Below are positions 20,667 to 30,851 of a DNA stretch of 31,343 nt, one piece after another. The stretch comes from a virus (taxonomy: Duplodnaviria; Heunggongvirae; Uroviricota; Caudoviricetes): IMG/VR virus record IMGVR_UViG_2526164609_000021. One strand, 5' to 3'. The translations under genes and the position numbers were made by a program. Numbering within the stretch: position 1 is the first letter of the stretch; each line of letters starts with the position of its first letter. The notes beneath the pieces are model-generated. The model saw only the letters and a program-made list of their open reading frames with translations. It was not told where the DNA came from and searched no databases.

Positions 20667-21581
20667 TCACGTCAGCTGGTAATGACGATCGGGAAGAATT
20701 TTTGCTGGAATTTCGGCTTCATCGTTCATCTGTAAGAGGTCAATTTCAATAGCGTTGCAGATGGCATCCAGCGGTAAATCATTGTTTTCAGTACCGAACG
20801 GATCTTCCAGTTCTTCCGCCAGACAATCCAGCGAAATAAAAGTGTAGGAAATCAGCACAGAGATAAAAGGCGTCATGTAATGCAGGTCCACGACCAGCGC
20901 GAACGGCAGCATGATACAAAACAGATAAACAGTACGATGCAAAATCAGGGTGTAGGCAAAGGGAATTGGCGTATAGGCAATGCGCTCGCATCCTGCCAGG
21001 ACCGCTGAAATATCATTAAGCCGATCGTTGAGGCTAATAAACAGGATTTCTGAAAGCTGCCCATTGCGGCGCTGAACCGCCAACCACTCCCCCATTATTA
21101 ACAAGATACGGTTAGCTGGAGAGTTCGAAGCCAGTACAGGCTGAAGATCTTCAGTCTTGAGATAATGAGCCAGCACTTCCGCCTGTGGCTGTTTGCGTAA
21201 TGTCATGCGTAAACAGTGGGCGAAGGCGATTTGCAGCCTGGCAAACTCCCTTACACTTGCCGAATCCGGCAATGTCGTTTTTACCTCACGTAGTAACGAC
21301 CGTGAGGCAATCATCAACTGTCCCCAAAGTTTTCGCGCTTCAACGTAACGGGCGTACCCGGCATTATTACGAAAACCAAGAAAAATGGCGATGGCGACAC
21401 CGAGAATGCTGAACGGTGCGAGGGTGAATTTGATGCCCAGATGCGTGTACCAGGGCAGCATGAAAATAACAGCGATAGAAAAGAGAAAATTGAGTAGTAA
21501 GCGCGAGGATATCTTGGATAATACTGAGCCGTGCCAGACAAAAATACGGCGCAGCCAGTGTTGTTGTGGACGAACAATCAT
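20667..21581 (-). CDS. yneE: Bestrophin-like membrane protein YneE
   Basis: MIVRPQQHWLRRIFVWHGSVLSKISSRLLLNFLFSIAVIFMLPWYTHLG... to ...PAKILPDRHYQLT; convergent with tam as in E. coli K-12. Confidence 0.9.
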   Translation of the reverse strand: MIVRPQQHWLRRIFVWHGSVLSKISSRLLLNFLFSIAVIFMLPWYTHLGIKFTLAPFSILGVAIAIFLGFRNNAGYARYVEARKLWGQLMIASRSLLREVKTTLPDSASVREFARLQIAFAHCLRMTLRKQPQAEVLAHYLKTEDLQPVLASNSPANRILLIMGEWLAVQRRNGQLSEILFISLNDRLNDISAVLAGCERIAYTPIPFAYTLILHRTVYLFCIMLPFALVVDLHYMTPFISVLISYTFISLDCLAEELEDPFGTENNDLPLDAICNAIEIDLLQMNDEAEIPAKILPDRHYQLT

Positions 21582-21777
21582 GGTTATCTTCAGGCGTGGA
21601 AAAGTCGCCCTATTAAACGTGATTACGATCACATTCTCAAGACGCTACTTACAAATTACCTACAAGCTTACAACATTAACAGGCGCTGCATGTGGCACCT
21701 GTTAATGATAAAGGCATATAGGATGTTGTAACTAATATAGTGAAATAAGAAACCCGGTCGAAACCGGGTTCAGAGTA

Positions 21778-22563
21778 TTAGCACAACGGGCGTACAGCTT
21801 CGCGCATCCCTTTTTCAAGAATCGCATCCAGGTCATTAGCAACCTGCTCGACCAGACCAGGCACTTGCGTCAGGTCCTGCTCCCAGTGGTCTTTTTCTGC
21901 CAAAACAATCGCTACCAGTTCCGGGGTGCCGATAACACGGTCACGATGCTGGCTCCAGAGTTGCTGATAACGTTCCAGCCAGTGTGCATCGTCCTGTACC
22001 GGATATGTTTCTCCGTTACGCTCACCGCGATAGAAGGCAATCAATGCCGTTAATGCGAAAGTAAGGCGCGCCGGAAGTGTGCCGTTTGCCTTCTGCCCTG
22101 CCAGCAGCTGCGGCAGGATGCGGGTGCGGAACTTGGTCATACCGTTGAGCGCGATAGACAGCAGCTGATGCTTAATGTACGGGTTACGGAAACGCCCGGT
22201 GACTGCACTGGCGAAAGATTCCAGTTCATCACGAGGCAAATCCAGTACCTGAATAATTTCTTCGTCGATGGCTTTTTCAACGAATGCGCAAATTTCAGCA
22301 TCGTTCATCGCTTCACCTACGGTATCCAGCCCTGCCTGGAACGCCACCGGCACCAGCGCGGTGTGCGCACCGTTGAGGATTGCCACTTTGCGTTCTTTAT
22401 ACGGTTTAATATCGTCAACAATCAGCACATTGAGCGGATATTTGTCCAGGCGCAGCTCAGTCGCTAAGGATTTCGGCCCCTGAATCACAAACAGGTAAAA
22501 GTGTTCAGCGGTGTCGAGAAAACCATCGTGATAACCCAGTTCTTCTTCCAGTTTAGCCACTTC
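21778..22563 (-). pseudogene. uxaB: Altronate oxidoreductase UxaB, C-terminal about 260 aa only, fused in frame to a phage tube fragment
   Basis: [72 protein letters not shown]... to ...[12 protein letters not shown]; the N-terminal roughly 190 codons of uxaB are absent. Confidence 0.9.
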
Positions 22564-22686
22564 ACCACCCCGGTAGCTGTCGGTGTTGCGCGTCAGCTTA
22601 GGCAGAGTGACGGACGTCACATTACCCACTTCGTTTTCACCATCCACAAACAGCGTAAAAAAGCGAAGATGTTTTGGCACAGCCAT
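22564..22686 (-). pseudogene. P2-like tail tube protein, N-terminal 41 codons only
   Basis: [41 protein letters not shown] matches the P2-type tube N-terminus (MA.PRKLK...F.DG......V.LPKLTRK...YRG) and runs directly into uxaB codons. Confidence 0.7.
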
Positions 22687-23870
22687 CAGGCACCTCCCAG
22701 CACCGCAAATGCGGGTTCAAAGTATTCATCAGTAAACGTCTGGTAAAGCTCCATGTCTTCCAGTGGCGGAACGGGCGTATATTTGTAGCGAATACGCACA
22801 CGTCCCTGACGTAAATCCGTGGTGCTGTTATCCACCACGTCATACCAGCACTCCGCGCCAATCAGTTTCCCGGCAGTCACCAGTGAATCCAGTTTTGCCC
22901 TGATGGCACTGATAACATCCTTCACATTCGCAGGCGTCAGTGGACTGTCGATGGTTTCAAACTGCGCTTCCGCAATTGAATCAGCCAGCACCTGTGCGGT
23001 TCGGGTATACACCTCAAAGATGTAGGCGTTCGTTTCCGGTGTGCGGTTACCCCAGAAGCGGACCCCGTTGCGACGAATAATGGTCGTGATTTCTTTGTTG
23101 TTGAGGCTGTTGGCATCGCTGTCTTCGGCCTGCAACGACCAGAACACATGCCTCGACATCCCCAGCACATTTTTAACCGGAACGTTGGACAGCGATTTGT
23201 TCCATCCCTGTTCATGGTCAATGTACGCACGAAGGCCGCACGCATAGGCAGGCGCGGGGAACGTTTCGTTTTTGCCATTTTTCGGGTTGTAGGCGATGAA
23301 GTCCGGCCATAAGAGCATCACCTCACGTTCGTTGAATTTCTGGCGGTAGGTAATTGCCTCGGCCATCGTGTTACAGCCATGACATGAGGCATACACAAAC
23401 GCGCGCAGTTTATCTGCAATCACGCACAGGGATTTTGTTACCGCCTCCGTGTCCAGCTCCGGCGCGGCCAGAATACGCGGACGGTATCCGATGCTTTCAT
23501 CCTGCTCTGCAACAAGCAGCGCATACATCCCCATATAGCTGCCGTCATCCTCAGAACCACCGATAACCAGTTGATCCTGCGTTTTTCCGTCTTCTTCTTT
23601 GTGTTCAGCCACGCGAACGACGATCACCTTTGTGCTCACCTGGTCTGCGATGGCCTTAAGCGCACGATAAAGCGTCCCCGTTGTCCCGCATTTTCCCAGC
23701 ACGTCATTGACGCGGGTCAGCAGTGTGGGCTTGTTCAGCGGGAACAGCTTCGCGTCCGCATCATCCGCCGTTGCCACGATACCGATAACGCTGGAATCAA
23801 CATCGTTAATCGCTGTTACCAGGTCGGTATTCTCCGTAACACGGGCACCATGAAAACGAGTTTCACTCAT
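22686..23870 (-). CDS. P2-like contractile tail sheath protein
   Basis: 394 aa; blocks FPLNKP, KLRAF, WPDF, EQGW.K.LSNV, FWGNRT, YTRTAQV and [10 protein letters not shown] line up with P2 sheath protein FI. Confidence 0.85.
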
Positions 23871-24027
23871 AGCTTCAGCCCCTTGTATCCGTTAAATGAT
23901 TCAGCAACAATCATCACCCACCACGCGCGTAATCTCACCCCTGCGCCGTTCTCCCGCCACGGCGACAACAAAAAGCAGTACCCCCCTCCGCACGCACATG
24001 CGACCATGCCGCACAGGGAGGGAGCAG

Positions 24028-25137
24028 ATGACCGACACCACCATGCAATTGCTCAGTCAGGGCACGGCCCCCGTGAAAATGCCGGATTTTGATATTCTCT
24101 CGGAGGGTAAAACGCTGTCAGGCGTGGCGGAGCGCCTGATGAGCCTGTAACTGACCGACAACCGGGGATTTGAGGCGGACCAGCTCACCATCACGCTGGA
24201 TGATGCGGATGGTCAGTTGCAGCTACCGCCACGGGGCGCGCGTCTGACGGTTCTCATTGGCTGGAAAGGGGAACCGCTGACAGAAAAAGGCACTTACATT
24301 GTTGATGAAATCGCTCACGAAGGACCGCCGGACAGGCTGACTGTTTCAGCCAGAAGCGCAGATTTTCGGGATGAATTTAACGTTAAACGTGAGGTGTCCT
24401 GGCATGATGTGACCGTTGAGCGTGTGGTATCCGCCATCGCTCATCGGTACGGTCTGAAACCGCAAATCAGCGAAATGCTGATGGATATCGAAATCGACCA
24501 CGCCGACCAGACCGAAGAAAGCGACATGTCCTTTCTTACGCGCATGGCGGAAATGCTGGGAGCAATCGCCACGGTAAAAAGCGGCAATCTGTTATTCATC
24601 ATGCCAGGTGGTGGCGTGAACGCACAGGGGCAGCCGTTGCCCTCGTTCGCCATTACACGCAGCAGCGGCGATCGCCATCAGTTCCGCATTGCTGACCGCG
24701 AGGCGTATACGGGGGTACGCGCCTACTGGCTTGATCTTAATTACGGGAAAAAGAAAAAAGTCAGCGTGAAACGCCGCAAACCGCCAAAACCCAAAAAGGA
24801 GAAAAGCAGCAGTCGGGAAGGCGACTATATGGAAGGTGCGGAAGGCAACGTGTTTGTGTTACGCAAGACTTATCAGAACGAGCAGGCAGCAAGACGCGCA
24901 GCGGCGGCAAAGTGGCAGCAGCTACAACGCGGAGCCGCATCATTCTCCATCACGCTGGCGCGTGGTCGTGCAGAACTCTATCCCGAAATGCATGGCACAG
25001 TGACAGGCTTTAAAAGCGAGATTGATTATCAGGACTGGATTATTGCAAAAGCCGAGCACACCATTGATAACAGCGGCTTTACCACGCAGCTTGAACTTGA
25101 AGCAAAAATCCCGGAATGGATAGCAGAAACAGAATAA
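24028..25137 (+). pseudogene. P2 gpD-like late tail protein with in-frame TAA stop
   Basis: MTDTTMQLL...GVAERLMSL, then TAA at 24148..24150, then same-frame LTDNRGFEADQLTITLDDADGQLQLPPRGARLTVLIGWKGEPLTEKGTYIVDE... (gpD family signature). Confidence 0.75.
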
Positions 25138-25686
25138 ATCTCTTAAAAATATTATTTTTGAGATGTGCTTCTACACTGACAGTAAGAACAAAAGATAATG
25201 TATCAGCCCACTAGATGTCAGAGGTTGGGGCATCAACCAGATGCTAACAATAATACGGATGTTTTTCCCACATGACAGAGGAAGTCAAGTATAATCTTCA
25301 CAGTCCATCCCGTCCAAGGGAATATGACTCAATAGTAAAAGTTCCAGTTTAGTTAGTAGACCCACACTTTATAGAAGAGTAATTCATGATTGGACAATTT
25401 TTAAGTGCAACAGAGATTTTAGCAAAGAACTATGTTCGTAATAAAATGGTTAAAAATCCATTTTATTCGAATTTAAAATGGAATTTTATTGAAAAAAACA
25501 TCATAAGATTAACATCCTCACCGGTTAAATCAGTACTTTGCATATCAGCTTTTTCATTTGTACTACTTTATGTTGGATATTTAAACGAATTATTTATAAA
25601 AAATAATCTTTTACATTATTTCCCGTTTAGGCATTCATTAACCGAATGGCAAACAACCATTTTAAGTGGCCGGTAATGACTCCAAC

Positions 25687-26189
25687 TTACTGATAGTGTT
25701 TTATGTTCAGATAATGCCCGATGACCTTGTCATGCAGCTCCACCGATTTTGAGAACGACAGTGACTTCCGTCCCAGCCTTGCCAGATGTTGTCTCAGATT
25801 CAGATTATGTCGCTCAATGCGCTGAGTGTAACGCTTGCTGATAACGTGCAGCTTTCCCTTCAGGCGTGATTCATACAGCGGCCAGCCATCCGTCATCCAT
25901 ACCACGACCTCAAAGGCCGACAGCAGGCTCAGAAGACGCTCCAGTGTGGCCAGAGTGCGTTCACCGAAGACGTGCGCCACAACCGTCCTCCGTATCCTGT
26001 CATACGCGTAAACAGCCAGCGCTGACGTGATTTAGCACCGACGTAGCCCCACTGTTCGTCCATTTCAGCGCAGACAATCACATCACTGCCCGGTTGTATG
26101 CGCGAGGTTACCGACTGCGGCCTGAGTTTTTTAAGTGACGTAAAACCGTGTTGAGGCCAACGCCCATAATGCGTGCACTGGCGCGACAT
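25687..26189 (-). pseudogene. insB: IS1 InsB frame, split by a 1-bp deletion
   Basis: InsB is broken into two overlapping ORFs (25929..26189 and 25687..25980) at the shortened A-run. Confidence 0.8.
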
Positions 26190-26383
26190 CCGACGCCATT
26201 CATGGCCATATCAATGATTTTCTGGTGCGTACCGGGCTGAGAGGCGGTGTAAGTGAACTGTAGTTGCCATGTTTTACGGCAATGAGAGCAGAGATAGCGC
26301 TGATGTCCGGCAGTGCTTTTGCCGTTACGCACCACGCCTTCAGTAGCGGAGCAGGAAGGACATCTGATGGAAATGGAAGCCAC
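26108..26383 (-). CDS. insA: IS1 InsA
   Basis: Identical 91-aa InsA to copy 1. Confidence 0.9.
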
Positions 26384-28177
26384 GCAAGCACCTTAAAATC
26401 ACCATCATACACTAAATCAGTAAGTTGGCAGCATTACCTAAGTGGCCAATTGACAATTATTGGTATTGTATACCCCCTTGTTATAGGTTTAGTAAGTGTC
26501 TTATTCCCAAAAAAGGCAGATAGAAAAATAGCCCAAACTGCTTATCAGCGTTACTCAGGATTCATGCTTGCTGGACTCAGCGGGCTTTTCTTATCAGGAT
26601 TTATACTTCTCAGTGTACTAATTAAAACTGTCTTTGGAAGTTATCTTTATGGTATAGCTTGTCTAATCAGCATATTATGGCTTTTGATAAACATAGTTCT
26701 TTCTATTTGGTTCTTTATCGTGAGTCTTGAAATTCTTGATGATGTAAAACGGCAAATAATTATAAAGCGATACATTGCCTTCGAAATAGTAATGCCCCAT
26801 ATTTGTAACAAAATCTCAGCCAAGCTTAGGTTATACCCTATCTATCAAAAACATAACTATTCAAATTTAGAAATCAAGCAAGCCGATTACAAAGGAGAAT
26901 ACATATCTGTGGCTAGCAGTTATTCTAAGGAAGATGAGTTAAGTTTATATCACCGTCCTTTTCAACTTACTCTTAATCTTATTAATTACCAACTAAAAAA
27001 GAAGAATCATTTTGCGTCATTTGTCATTGGTGATAATCGTACAAAAGAAACAGAATCCACGGGTAAGATACTTTTTAGCGTTAAAAATATCAAACCAGAC
27101 AGCTTATTAATAAAAATACTTAAGCAATGTTTTTATAGGGCTCCGATTAAAGGAGGAGATTTTTCCGTAAGTCTTACAATGCAGGCTATAACAGCAGATA
27201 CGTATATGTATCTGCGGGATTCTGATCTCATTAGTTTTGACAATGCTATCTCTGCATTAATTAATAACTTTAATAATCTCTGCGATTTGTATTTTTTTCA
27301 AGATGATAATACCAACAATAACTTCTTACTGATCACTACAGAATTATTTGAACGGAGTTTTCAATATGAGTTTTCAGATGAAGTTTATAAAATATCAAAT
27401 AATTCCATGGATAAAATTAATCTTTCTGAAAGATTTTTTGATTTATGTCTTTGGAGCGGAGTGCGTATTATCAATAATAGAAAACATCTTATCAGCAATG
27501 AACTTTGTATCTATATGGGAATTACTCGTTCACAATGGTCAATATTAACAGAATGGTTCCGAAACAACCAATCACTCTTAAATGCCTCGCTTCGTTCACG
27601 TTATAATCGTATATTAAGAACCTATACCACTGTTTGGGAGCAATATCAAGAAAGCATAAACTTTCGTTTCTGCAATACAGAGAATTCAGATTTATTTGAA
27701 TTATTTTGCAAAACGCAACTACAAGAACTTCCATCGATGATTATTGATGCAACACAGACTCGCGATCCTTCTACTATTGATACAGCCGTCGATCTTATTA
27801 ACCGATGGCAGCACTCAATGAATATTGACAGCCATTCGGTAGAAAAATACAGTTACAAAGGCCAGCTTTTTAACCCGGTTTTTTTCATATCCAAAAAACT
27901 AAACTTCAATTCAGACAGAGAGTGGTTCAATATTGCCATCATAAATGCGTTGACTGACATGCGTATATGCACATGTCTTTATCTGACATCAAGAATCAAT
28001 ACTTCTGACAAACTAATGACACATTACATTAAACTTATTTTAGAGGGTAAACTTATTGACCAAACCGGTGGATATGAAACTCCCACTGAAGAAATTGATA
28101 ATGCAAGCCAACTAATCAAGATATTAATTAGAATCTGCCTGTGGACATGGTCTGAAAATATGGAGCACAATGGGTAG

Positions 28178-28489
28178 ATGAATAGTTTAGCAAGGCGTTT
28201 ACGTGACTATGATAAAACAGACATGGTGATGGGCAGAGTTTACAGTAATGTTTTTGACTGTGGATTTATTGATATGGAACAATCATGGATTCAGCTATTA
28301 TTAATTTTTTCTAACAAGAACGATAGCGTATCAAAAGAAATAAAAGAAGCAATAGAAAACAACTATATAACATATCGTGAGAAGCAACGACTCATTGGAG
28401 TATTATCAAAAATTTGTAACTCCATCGAATACACTAAAATCAAGCTGACTTTAACATTGGACGATCTCCAAACAAAAAAGAAAACTTAA
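28178..28489 (+). CDS. Gene B of the AT-rich cassette: small hypothetical protein (103 aa)
   Basis: ATG at 28178 directly abuts the TAG of gene A (tagatg); AT-rich; no hydrophobic helix; no homolog recognised. Confidence 0.5.
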   Translation: MNSLARRLRDYDKTDMVMGRVYSNVFDCGFIDMEQSWIQLLLIFSNKNDSVSKEIKEAIENNYITYREKQRLIGVLSKICNSIEYTKIKLTLTLDDLQTKKKT

Positions 28490-28515
28490 GAAAGTTGCTT
28501 CAAGAGCATATTAAC

Positions 28516-29280
28516 ATGCTAAAGAAAGATCTTGATATGAGACTTCAGGATGCTGCCATAGATGTACATCGACTAGATAGCACTGCACGTAAAACATCAG
28601 AACATCTTCGTAAACGCATCAAGAAAACGCTCCCTCTTTCACTTTTCAAATCTATTGATTTTAAGCAGGCTAGCGATTGTTTCACAAAACATAAGATATC
28701 TATTAAGATAGATAAAGAACCGTATGCCGAAGGAATAGAATCCATCCCTTATATCAATGAAGGTGATATTCAAGCAGACTTAATTCTCAAGGACATCCAG
28801 AGAATAATACTTTCAAATTTATTTAGCACTGGCTGTTCGCAACATACCGTAATAGAAGATTTCAATATGTTGATTGATCACATAAAATCATCTGCTGACT
28901 TGGCTGGCAAACTGGTTCTTGTGATGAGTAAAGAGATCTTTCAGCAATATAATCGTATGCTTTTCGATAATCCCAACCTCAGAGAACTAATGAGAAAAAA
29001 TGATGATGGCTCTATGAACATAACTACTGAATCCGGTACCCGTAAGGTTTACTTCTTACCATTTGTTAATCAACCATTTTCTCTTGTGGTAAAGGATAAC
29101 TACTTCACTAAATTAATTATTAGAGAATATGATAATAATAAGTTAGTAAATGTCACTTCAGAGAATATCAAAAGTGACTCAGATAAATTCAAGCTAACTC
29201 TTAACTATGAGTTGAATATAGTATTTGAAGGAAACGCTGATTTAAAAATAGCTCACTCGCAAAGAGTGACATCAGAATAA
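28516..29280 (+). CDS. Gene C of the AT-rich cassette: hypothetical protein (about 254 aa from the ATG; TTG at 28495 also possible)
   Basis: Same strand, about 26 bp after gene B; soluble, charged; no homolog recognised. Confidence 0.55.
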   Translation: MLKKDLDMRLQDAAIDVHRLDSTARKTSEHLRKRIKKTLPLSLFKSIDFKQASDCFTKHKISIKIDKEPYAEGIESIPYINEGDIQADLILKDIQRIILSNLFSTGCSQHTVIEDFNMLIDHIKSSADLAGKLVLVMSKEIFQQYNRMLFDNPNLRELMRKNDDGSMNITTESGTRKVYFLPFVNQPFSLVVKDNYFTKLIIREYDNNKLVNVTSENIKSDSDKFKLTLNYELNIVFEGNADLKIAHSQRVTSE

Positions 29281-29288
29281 TATCTTTG

Positions 29289-29319
29289 ACGGCGCTCCTT
29301 AGAGTGCCGTTCGTTTATT
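29289..29319 (+). terminator. Candidate intrinsic terminator after gene C
   Basis: Imperfect stem acggcgctc / gagtgccgt with loop ctta, followed by tcgtttatt. Confidence 0.35.
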
Positions 29320-29622
29320 AACTAATGCTAAAAATCATTATATAGAGAAAGTCATGTTTAAATCTTAGAGAATACAACCTAGAATAGTGCAAGCACTACA
29401 ATAAGAGAGGTCGCTATGTTCCGTTGTCCGCTTTGTGGCGCATCTGCCCGTATCCGCACCAGTCGTCCGGAAAATGATTCAAACACCGTGAGACAAAAGT
29501 ATTATCAGTGTAACAATCTAGAATGCGGCGTATGTTTCTCAACACTGGAAGCCTTCCACAAATTCACTTCAAAGCACGCCTCCCCCATTCACTCATCAGA
29601 GGGCATCCCGTTGGATTTGCCC

Positions 29623-30528
29623 CTATATTTCCAGACATCTGTTATCACTTAACCCATTACAAGCCCGCTGCCGCAGATATTCCCGTGGCGAGCGATAACC
29701 CAGCGCACTATGCGGATGCCATTCGTTATAATGCTCGAACGCCTCTGCAAGGTTCTTTGCTGCCGTTAACCCGTCTGGTTTGGGCATGATACTGATGTAG
29801 TCACGCTTTATCGTTTTCACGAAGCTCTCTGCTATTCCGTTACTCTCCGGACTCCGCACCGCCGTGTTCTTCGGTTCAAGTCCCAACATCCGGGCGAACT
29901 GGCGTGTTTCATTAGCCCGGTAGCATGAACCATTATCCGTCAGCCACTCCACTGGAGACGACGGAAGATCGTTGCCGAAGCGGCGTTCCACCGCTCCCAG
30001 CATGACGTCCTGTACTGTTTCACTGTTGAAGCCGCCGGTAGTCACCGCCCAGTGCAGTGCCTCACGCTCACAGCAGTCCAGCGCGAACGTGACACGCAGT
30101 CTCTCTCCGTTATCACAGCAGAACTCGAACCCGTCAGAGCACCATCGCTGATTGCTTTCTTTCACGGCCACTCTGCCTGTATGTGCCCGTTTCGATGGTG
30201 GTACAGCAGGTTTTCGCTCAAGCAACAGCGCATTCTGGCGCATGATCCGGTAAACACGTTTGGCATTGATCGCAGGCATACCATCAAGTTCTGCCTGTCT
30301 GCGAAGCAGCGCCCATACCCGACGATAACCATACGTGGGCAGCTCTCCGATAACATGGTGTATACGGAGAAGCACATCCGTATCATCAGTGTGACGACTG
30401 CGGCGGCCATCCATCCAGTCATCGGTTCGTCTGAGAATGACGTGCAACTGCGCACGCGACACCCGGAGACAACGGCTGACTAAGCTTACTCCCCATCCCC
30501 GGGCAATAAGGGCGCGTGCGCTATCCAC
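29623..30528 (-). CDS. insD: IS2 InsD (orfB, DDE transposase frame)
   Basis: 301-aa ORF ...[41 protein letters not shown]...[49 protein letters not shown]... Confidence 0.9.
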
Positions 30529-30851
30529 TTTTTTGCCCGTCCATATTCAACGGCTTCTTTGAGGAGTTCATTTTCCATCGTTTTCTTGCCGAGCAGGCGC
30601 TGGAGTTCTTTAATCTGCTTCATGGCGGCAGCAAGTTCAGAGGCAGGAACAACCTGTTCTCCGGCGGCCACAGCAGTAAGACTTCCTTCCTGGTATTGCT
30701 TACGCCAGAGAAATAACTGGCTGGCTGCTACACCATGTTGCCGGGCAACGAGGGAGACCGTCATCCCCGGTTCAAAGCTCTGCTGAACAATTGCGATCTT
30801 TTCCTGTGTGGTACGCCGTCTGCGTTTCTCCGGCCCTAAGACATCAATCAT
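30486..30851 (-). CDS. insC: IS2 InsC (orfA)
   Basis: [57 protein letters not shown]... Confidence 0.9.

Follow-up and report, generated by a model that had tools for sequence, protein, structure and literature searches.

The chimeric reading frame and its parents

We analysed a window of 31,343 nucleotides (the whole stretch of DNA in viral record IMGVR_UViG_2526164609_000021), in which one open reading frame joins the start of a phage tail tube gene, FII, to the end of the bacterial gene uxaB (Table 1). The frame matches the Phage_tube profile PF04985 near its N-terminus (fusion residues 4-44, profile positions 1-42 of 165, E=5e-8) and the Mannitol_dh_C profile PF08125 over most of the remainder (residues 92-289, E=6e-58). 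Alignment places fusion residues 42-302 on UxaB 223-483, with E42 corresponding to UxaB E223; of the Rossmann domain, this segment has only the final 41 residues, and it includes all of Mannitol_dh_C. A sequence-only reading of this DNA had described 41 tube codons followed by the UxaB C-terminus, a description that is exact by ORF listing, Pfam and three-way alignment. We also asked, as that reading had proposed, whether the first 41 residues might be native UxaB; native UxaB begins MKTLNRRDFPG... and bears no resemblance to them.

Both parents can be followed at the DNA level. Window positions 22564-22686 correspond to the initial 123 nt of intact FII in E. coli P88-like prophages, with 98.4% identity, and the match continues into the sheath gene at 99.7% identity. 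At the protein level 39 of the 41 phage-derived residues are identical to intact FII copies, the two changes being K22N and K34N. The ATG of the fusion overlaps the TGA of the sheath ORF as ATGA and is preceded by GGAGG. On the other side, positions 21781-22563 share about 98% identity with codons 223-483 of E. coli uxaB; the best megablast identity, 97.3%, is skewed toward matches that run through a patch of homology at the crossover, and the K-12 gene is 98.1% identical, differing at 16 nt and at 4 of 261 amino acids.

Table 1. Features at the fusion locus, in window coordinates.
Feature	Positions	Strand	Basis or remark
Native chromosomal islet tam-yneE-TerC-uxaB	19909..22563		98.1% identity to MG1655 1607350-1610015
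Replication-terminus site ATATAGGATGTTGTAACTAATAT, which we take to be TerC from the Ter consensus	21716..21738	+	Between fusion stop and yneE
Native uxaB intrinsic terminator hairpin	21750..21771	-	Kept directly 3' of the stop
FII'::'uxaB chimeric ORF	21778..22686	-	302 codons plus stop, ATG start; ORF listing, Pfam, alignments
uxaB-derived segment, codons 223-483 plus native stop	21778..22563	-	Pfam, DNA and protein alignment
Crossover TG, common to both parents	22563..22564	-	3' end of 15-bp patch 22577-22563
Phage-derived segment, codons 1-41 of FII (P88-like major tail tube gene)	22564..22686	-	Pfam PF04985 and DNA alignment
Tail sheath gene FI, intact, 394 aa	22686..23870	-	ORF listing and Pfam; stop overlaps fusion ATG (ATGA) as in intact prophages
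FI upstream region with pF-like putative activator motif GTTGTCGCCGTGGCGGGAGAAC (about 23969-23948)	23871..24027	-	Alignment with ETEC4088 and P2
gpD (late control D / baseplate hub) pseudogene	24028..25137	+	In-frame TAA at 24148-24150; Ser in ETEC4088
ogr', late-gene activator, 65 native codons plus 13 IS2-derived	29416..29652	+	Alignment
IS2 in the 3' end of ogr	29611..30942		5-bp overlap of flanking homology, the target duplication

The phage parent is readily recognized. From gpD to FII codon 41, the phage arm is 99.7% identical to, and has the same gene order as, a complete prophage of E. coli ETEC4088 (NZ_CP122629.1), and window positions 22564-25200 are 97.4% identical to phage P88 over 97% of their length. 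P88 is a mitomycin-inducible P2-like coliphage (PMC5285337). By nucleotide similarity and synteny, the remnant is P2-like (P88-like, Xuanwuvirus). What survives of the prophage is attR-hok-ogr'-cargo'-gpD'-FI-FII' (window 22564-31343), and its set of head, tail, lysis, replication, immunity and integration genes is incomplete. The Pfam match of gpD covers only profile positions 64-304, which raised the possibility of a gene severed by an aberrant inversion; we rejected this possibility because the N-terminus lies upstream, in frame, behind the TAA. The divergent order of D and FI was likewise rejected as a sign of inversion; it is native to inducible P88-type phages.

The 38-kb ETEC4088 prophage is integrated between ihfA and btuC, its order running pheT and ihfA, then hok, ogr, cargo, gpD (<-), FI (->), FII, E, E', T, U ... 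int, then btuC. An attR-side junction like that of ETEC4088, at the ihfA-hok edge, occurs in at least 12 E. coli genomes. Because the Shigella genomes that we examined at this locus (loci L003-L008) retain the hok-ihfA-pheT attR side, just past the right end of the window, the prophage occupied its own attachment site. On the ETEC4088 map, about 31 kb separate the phage-side breakpoint, between FII codons 41 and 42, from attL, and about 6.5 kb separate it from attR.

On the host side, a native islet of 2.65 kb remains, bounded on the left by IS4 and on the right by the phage junction. In MG1655, tam(+), yneE(-) and uxaB(-) lie at 1.607-1.611 Mb, and btuC(-), ihfA(-) and pheT(-) at 1.794-1.798 Mb. 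On the K-12 map, about 185 kb separates uxaB from the ihfA-btuC site, an interval that holds tyrS and ribC, two indispensable genes. The flanks of the fusion, tam(+) yneE(-) uxaB(-) ... ihfA(-) pheT(-), are collinear with MG1655, and FII and uxaB are co-oriented.

The crossover and how it may have arisen

To resolve the crossover, we aligned the window with the intact FII of the E. coli JNE151685 prophage and one intact uxaB. The window equals the phage through ...CTACCGGGGTGG (G22565) and uxaB from AAGTGGCTAAA... (A22562), and the boundary drawn earlier from the sequence alone, 22563/22564, falls within the intervening 2-bp TG ambiguity common to both parents. The parents match at 11 of the 15 patch positions 5' of the crossover, or at 10 of 15 with the K-12 allele of uxaB. 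Because of this imperfect homology patch, the BLAST matches of the two parents overlap: by megablast, those to uxaB reach 22577 and those to the phage reach 22563. The three-way alignment revealed no IS end and no att-like sequence at the join. Both parents are identifiable, the breakpoint is sharp, the homology is short and no mobile-element end is present; the join thus bears the signature expected of short-homology illegitimate recombination. That the two frames agree had a prior of one in three and calls for no special explanation.

We therefore read the ORF, with considerable confidence, as a non-functional chimeric pseudogene, a junction scar left behind as a lineage of Shigella dysenteriae reduced its genome, and made by one microhomology-type recombination. 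The ancestral chromosome would have had a P88-like (P2-like, Peduoviridae) prophage in its usual place, between ihfA and btuC. A single RecA-independent, microhomology-type illegitimate recombination would then have joined FII codon 41 to uxaB codon 223, removing in the same event the 5' 666 nt of uxaB, roughly 31 kb of prophage beyond FII and the intervening chromosomal DNA. The prophage functions lost in this way would include E, T, U, tail fibre, baseplate, lysis, head, replication, immunity and integrase. By chance, the join would have been in frame, leaving the FII start codon and ribosome-binding site to be read on to the native uxaB stop and terminator. We infer a single recombination event that truncated both genes at once.

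We regard a deletion, preceded by other rearrangements, as the most likely topology of this event. As FII and uxaB are co-oriented on a collinear map, deletion yields exactly the head-to-tail fusion observed. A one-step deletion from a K-12-like map is, however, impossible because the interval contains the indispensable tyrS and ribC, so either this interval had been relocated by earlier rearrangements or something other than a simple deletion took place.

The latter case would be that of an inversion or translocation, for instance after IS-mediated inversions that had turned FII and uxaB to face opposite ways, with the reciprocal uxaB5'::FII3' join possibly lost since. The presence of tyrS and ribC in the K-12 interval means that the region was rearranged in this lineage anyway; the locus is crowded with IS1, IS2, IS4 and a second prophage remnant, and the only native DNA left is the 2.65-kb islet. 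An inversion should, however, have generated a second, in-frame chimera, UxaB(1-222)::FII(42-170), with the predicted junction ...CCGCGYGATG/GCATGATGGG..., and among 5.8 billion sequences we found no protein that covered more than 72% of this chimera or both of its halves. A 224-aa protein family of 339 members (P0036) was considered as the reciprocal side and rejected, as it represents uxaB running into an IS3-family end at codon 225 (presumably IS629-like, judging from the inverted repeat), ends with the contig and derives from a different allele. Nor does the 31-kb window contain other fragments of the prophage or of uxaB/dgcF, and the flanks are collinear with K-12, as a deletion predicts. 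We thus consider an inversion or translocation unlikely, though it deserves to be weighed.

The sequence-only reading had instead proposed a two-step history, in which a P2-like prophage integrated into uxaB and truncated it, and was itself truncated later by a separate event. This proposal does not hold up. Bare abutment of phage and uxaB DNA is the one observation that speaks for it, and the breakpoint falls in the middle of FII rather than at a phage end, far from both attL and attR, at a join without att-like sequence. Moreover, the same Shigella genomes keep the attR-ihfA junction, the usual E. coli site for this type of phage, and one recombination accounts for both truncations. We regard a two-step history as highly improbable and retain the single illegitimate recombination.

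Two sequence elements near the breakpoint might invite a more specific mechanism. The first is TerC, at a distance of about 825 bp; the second is a perfect Chi site, 29 nt away on the side that was deleted. Given how Tus/Ter and RecBCD/Chi work, the geometry fits the retained DNA in neither case, and we rejected a Ter- or Chi-driven event in favor of coincidence.

Product, expression and decay of the fusion

In intact UxaB, the PF01232 Rossmann domain spans residues 16-263 and Mannitol_dh_C spans 273-470. The break between UxaB residues 222 and 223 removes 207 of the 248 Rossmann-domain residues, and the PF01232 match is absent from the fusion. The fusion does keep the K-x4-N-x2-H motif, as KVAILNGAH, which is invariant in an alignment of enterobacterial UxaB and aligns to KLRMLNGSH of the solved homologue 4im7; we take this motif to be catalytic, as in the structures of mannitol 2-dehydrogenase. 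Because the dinucleotide-binding part, within UxaB 1-222, is missing, NAD(H) binding and tagaturonate reductase activity would be lost, and the activity of the fusion should almost certainly be gone. A break inside the Rossmann domain thus lends support to the earlier prediction that the product is unlikely to retain dehydrogenase activity. As for the phage part, the fusion scores 30.9 bits against the TIGR01611 tube model (cut-off 102.75), whereas the intact FII parent matches PF04985 over positions 1-165; with 41 of 170 tube residues, the fusion is predicted to be incapable of forming a tube subunit.

Despite these losses, the fusion protein carries the database name 'tagaturonate reductase [Shigella dysenteriae]'. 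It scores 391 bits against NCBIfam NF002969, for which the cut-off is 359, with only positions 220-482 of the 482-position profile matched, and it is because this partial match exceeds the cut-off that the name was assigned. The name is an annotation trap: metabolic reconstructions that trust it would wrongly credit these strains with UxaB.

Any transcription of the fusion would come from an Ogr-dependent late promoter upstream of the sheath gene. The FI upstream region equals that of ETEC4088 except at two positions, both outside a putative activator motif, GTTGT...AAC (TGT-N12-AgA), that is centred about 88 nt before the sheath ATG and has the same length as the P2 site. In the P2 record, the pF activator-binding site is centred 83 nt before the FI ATG. 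We found the motif by direct alignment to P2, and it is one mismatch away from TGT-N12-ACA; exact TGT-N12-ACA Ogr sites do not occur upstream of the sheath gene, and their total in the window equals chance.

P2-type late promoters require Ogr; in the window, IS2 interrupts ogr (86 codons) after codon 65. The truncated Ogr aligns to residues 1-63 of the 72-residue P2 Ogr, including all four zinc-binding Cys, by virtue of which some late-promoter activity may persist. Even so, with ogr truncated and no early, replication or immunity genes left, the fusion is probably expressed at a low level at most. The earlier suggestion that phage or sheath-gene transcription drives the fusion thus stands in part: any expression would come from the phage side, where the ATGA overlap, GGAGG and FI upstream region are kept, but strong expression is doubtful with ogr cut. 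An IS2 insertion in ogr is also found in E. coli STEC384. We considered common ancestry of the two insertions and rejected it, as they lie 9 bp apart in different ogr alleles; judged by position and allele, they are independent hits at a hotspot.

Several genes of the remnant have decayed. Besides the nonsense mutation in gpD, a 1039-aa cargo ORF is broken by IS1, a nonsense mutation and a frameshift. The sheath gene has four substitutions, three of them non-synonymous, and the tube segment has two, both non-synonymous. In the uxaB-derived part, Y141D, P146Q and A213T, which make up three of the four amino acid changes relative to K-12, fall at positions that are invariant or nearly invariant among 11 enterobacterial UxaB sequences. 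Sister genomes of the clade retain the ancestral residues at two of the changed positions, K34 as in the phage and Y141 as in UxaB, so K34N and Y141D arose after the fusion; a synonymous change at E77 arose on another branch of the clade.

We also compared the remnants with their native neighbors. Within the clade, over a common region of 5.7 kb, tam and yneE together show no non-synonymous and two synonymous changes, and the remnants show four non-synonymous changes, two synonymous changes and a 1-nt indel, counts that are too small for statistics. Relative to K-12, yneE has two amino acid differences and tam has none. The uxaB remnant has a dN/dS of 0.10, little more than the 0.055 of yneE, and most of this divergence had accumulated before the fusion formed. 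The within-clade counts are small, but their consistent direction suggests that the remnant is under relaxed constraint and drifting.

Could the chimera nevertheless be made, and could selection have acted here? In one version of this idea, the chimera is produced, through sheath coupling, the pF-like promoter and truncated Ogr, and the islet, which lies between two prophage remnants, was kept by selection, for example for the TerC fork barrier or for yneE. The fusion would then mark the closest tolerated deletion endpoint beside a Ter site rather than a random scar; we consider this very improbable. In another version, the chimera itself is expressed and retained for a function, for example as a stable UxaB C-domain protein co-translated with the sheath. 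Several features would suit such a function: every genome seen has the fusion frame open, with an intact sheath ORF in front of it, the native signals for translational coupling have been kept, and truncated Ogr has its zinc-finger core. Against it, the post-fusion changes are mostly non-synonymous and at conserved UxaB residues, the remnant's other genes, apart from the open sheath ORF, are broken, and an open frame is to be expected of a scar with less than 0.3% within-clade divergence. We know of no precedent for half a Rossmann-fold enzyme and a quarter of a tube protein serving as a functional unit, and a retained function is hard to credit. We thus continue to view the ORF as a decaying pseudogene.

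Occurrence in genomes and relation to known systems

The identical 302-aa protein occurs in 196 blocks on 156 contigs of the protein index. Carriers include the complete chromosomes CP026807.1, CP026823.1, CP026805.1 and CP026832.1 and one NCTC contig. AKNG01000040.1 also carries the fusion, and the window is 100% identical to it across 19.6 kb. Many of the short-read contigs with the fusion are 5-6 kb long and end at the flanking IS1 and IS4. A 289-aa version of the fusion (L018) proved to be another start-codon call on identical DNA and was discarded as a variant. Both the fusion and sheath ORFs are open in every genome seen, as expected of a young scar.

Outside these carriers, the two halves were found apart. 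In a megablast search of 5,426 complete E. coli genomes they were never joined, and no place in these genomes covers at least 80% of window positions 21600-24300. We also sought the pre-deletion state by way of the window's exact sheath allele, and all ten contexts, including further complete genomes, already carry the fusion. The junction is a fixed feature of one S. dysenteriae clade. An assembly or sequencing artefact, such as a chimeric contig, has nothing in its favor and can be dismissed almost outright, as the same junction recurs in independent assemblies built with different technologies, among them complete chromosomes, a draft from 2012, NCTC contigs from long reads, and Logan assemblies of separate sequencing runs.

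The junction sequence thus offers a stable and unique marker for the fusion-bearing clade (marker string CTACCGGGGTGGTGAAGTGGCTAAACTGG). The locus is also a base-resolved case of a host-prophage gene fusion by microhomology-mediated illegitimate recombination, in the part of a Shigella chromosome where replication terminates, and with uxaB, a gene of galacturonate catabolism, the list of catabolic genes that a clade of S. dysenteriae has lost grows by one. A literature search found no paper on CP026807, on uxaB in S. dysenteriae or on a Shigella uxaB pseudogene.

Compared with its parents, the fusion is a partial copy of each. Like E. coli UxaB (b1521; tagaturonate reductase / altronate oxidoreductase, of the long-chain mannitol dehydrogenase family), it has Mannitol_dh_C, the K-x4-N-x2-H motif, the stop and the terminator, with TerC-yneE-tam downstream, but it lacks residues 1-222, has three lineage-specific substitutions at conserved positions and takes its promoter and start codon from the phage. 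With P88-like FII (Xuanwuvirus, Peduoviridae; a homologue of P2 gpFII) it shares the 41 codons, the ribosome-binding site and the ATGA overlap, bar two substitutions, but it keeps only 41 of 170 residues.

Two known kinds of remnant provide the closest comparisons. The cryptic P2 remnant of E. coli K-12 consists of ogrK and yegZ (gpD'), and it too is a right-arm remnant that retains D and ogr beside attR after deletion of the rest. It differs in attachment site and phage lineage; in the locus described here, the sheath gene and 41 FII codons survive as well, and the endpoint lies in a host gene. Genome reduction in Shigella, for its part, has left pseudogenes and deletion scars known as 'black holes', such as the cadA region, with its large deletions marked by remnants of prophages and IS elements. 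The fusion resembles these scars in that a catabolic gene is lost, prophage remnants and IS elements flank the junction, and the state is fixed in a clade. It differs in that the junction itself is IS-free, appears microhomology-mediated and forms an in-frame chimera, and in that the loss of uxaB is not known to be adaptive. We conclude that the parents are ordinary and that this fusion is a new instance of a familiar process, the reduction of Shigella genomes.

Naming of the fusion and the breakpoint in uxaB

Public records call the truncated chimera (window 21781–22686, minus strand), in which tail-tube codons precede the C-terminal part of UxaB, a 'tagaturonate reductase'. Against NCBIfam NF002969 the fusion protein scores 391 bits, with only profile positions 220–482 matched, and it acquires this name because it exceeds the model's cut-off of 359 bits. 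A truncated fusion that scores above a family cut-off is an annotation pitfall.

Intact uxaB carries a perfect Chi site 29 nt 5′ to the breakpoint; on its phage side the junction has the sequence GGTGGTGG. This geometry does not suit a RecBCD/Chi-promoted event in which the 3′ half of uxaB is kept, and we therefore regard the proximity of Chi to the breakpoint as coincidence. A different lineage has undergone a separate inactivation of uxaB: in a contig from Logan (SRR6954241; L014 6001–6701), codon 224 is followed by an inserted IS3-family end (TGAACCGCCCCGGAAATCCTGGAGACTAA), which puts this break just two codons away from the one in Shigella. The N-terminal UxaB fragments form a cluster of 339 members.

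Features of the window and of the loci compared with it
Feature	Location	Strand	Remarks
IS1	3–754
IS1	6707–7474
IS1	25672–26439
IS4	18480–19908		adjoins tam at second codon
tam	19909–20663		ATG and ribosome-binding site lost
TerC-type replication terminus site, perfect, ATATAGGATGTTGTAACTAATAT	21716–21738	+	between fusion stop/terminator and yneE
gpD, phage baseplate-hub gene	24028–25137	+	in-frame TAA at 24148–24150
1039-aa cargo ORF, destroyed copy	25386–29282	+
1039-aa cargo ORF, intact	L013 3250–6369	-
ogr′, late activator gene	29416–29652		interrupted by IS2 after codon 65/86
IS2	29611–30942		inserted in ogr 3′ end
Chi site, perfect, GCTGGTGG	parental uxaB nt 630–637 (intact loci L026 / L002)		deleted side of junction

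The surviving chromosomal islet

The 2.65-kb tam-yneE-TerC-uxaB islet (19909–22563) is the sole native chromosome left at the locus, with prophage remnant on either side. Its terminus site is one that we take to be TerC, going by the Ter consensus, and two singleton SNPs in other strains, at 21714 and 21715, fall 1–2 bp outside it. Upstream of tam, E. coli carries the lsr operon, whose place in the window is taken by IS4 together with a tail-gene remnant of a lambdoid prophage (~1–18475); tam has lost its start codon and ribosome-binding site because IS4 abuts it.

Decay of the phage remnant and its cargo slot

The in-frame TAA in gpD, where the intact ETEC4088 prophage encodes Ser, is common to all Shigella loci compared, and a 1-nt deletion at 24072 occurs in only some of them. 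In E. coli STEC384, IS2 has independently entered another ogr allele (L015 16990–17300), in the same orientation and only 9 bp from the insertion site in the window. These two insertions suggest that the 3′ end of ogr may be an IS2 hotspot. Two of the IS1 copies share 99.9% identity and one, inverted, is at 91%; all three are likely to serve in further rearrangements, and because of them short-read contigs of the locus reach only 5–6 kb.

In the window, the 1039-aa ORF between gpD and ogr is disrupted by IS1 (25663–26438), by a nonsense mutation at position 28176 and by the loss of 1 nt. PGAP labels the ETEC4088 version 'MFS transporter'; searches of Pfam, PADLOC and NCBIfam with it gave no match, and the intact ORFan may be of interest as a candidate for a defence or cargo role. 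The gpD-ogr interval is a variable cargo slot in P88-like prophages, holding this ORF in ETEC4088, a ParA-family gene in JNE151685 and hxsDBCA in STEC384.
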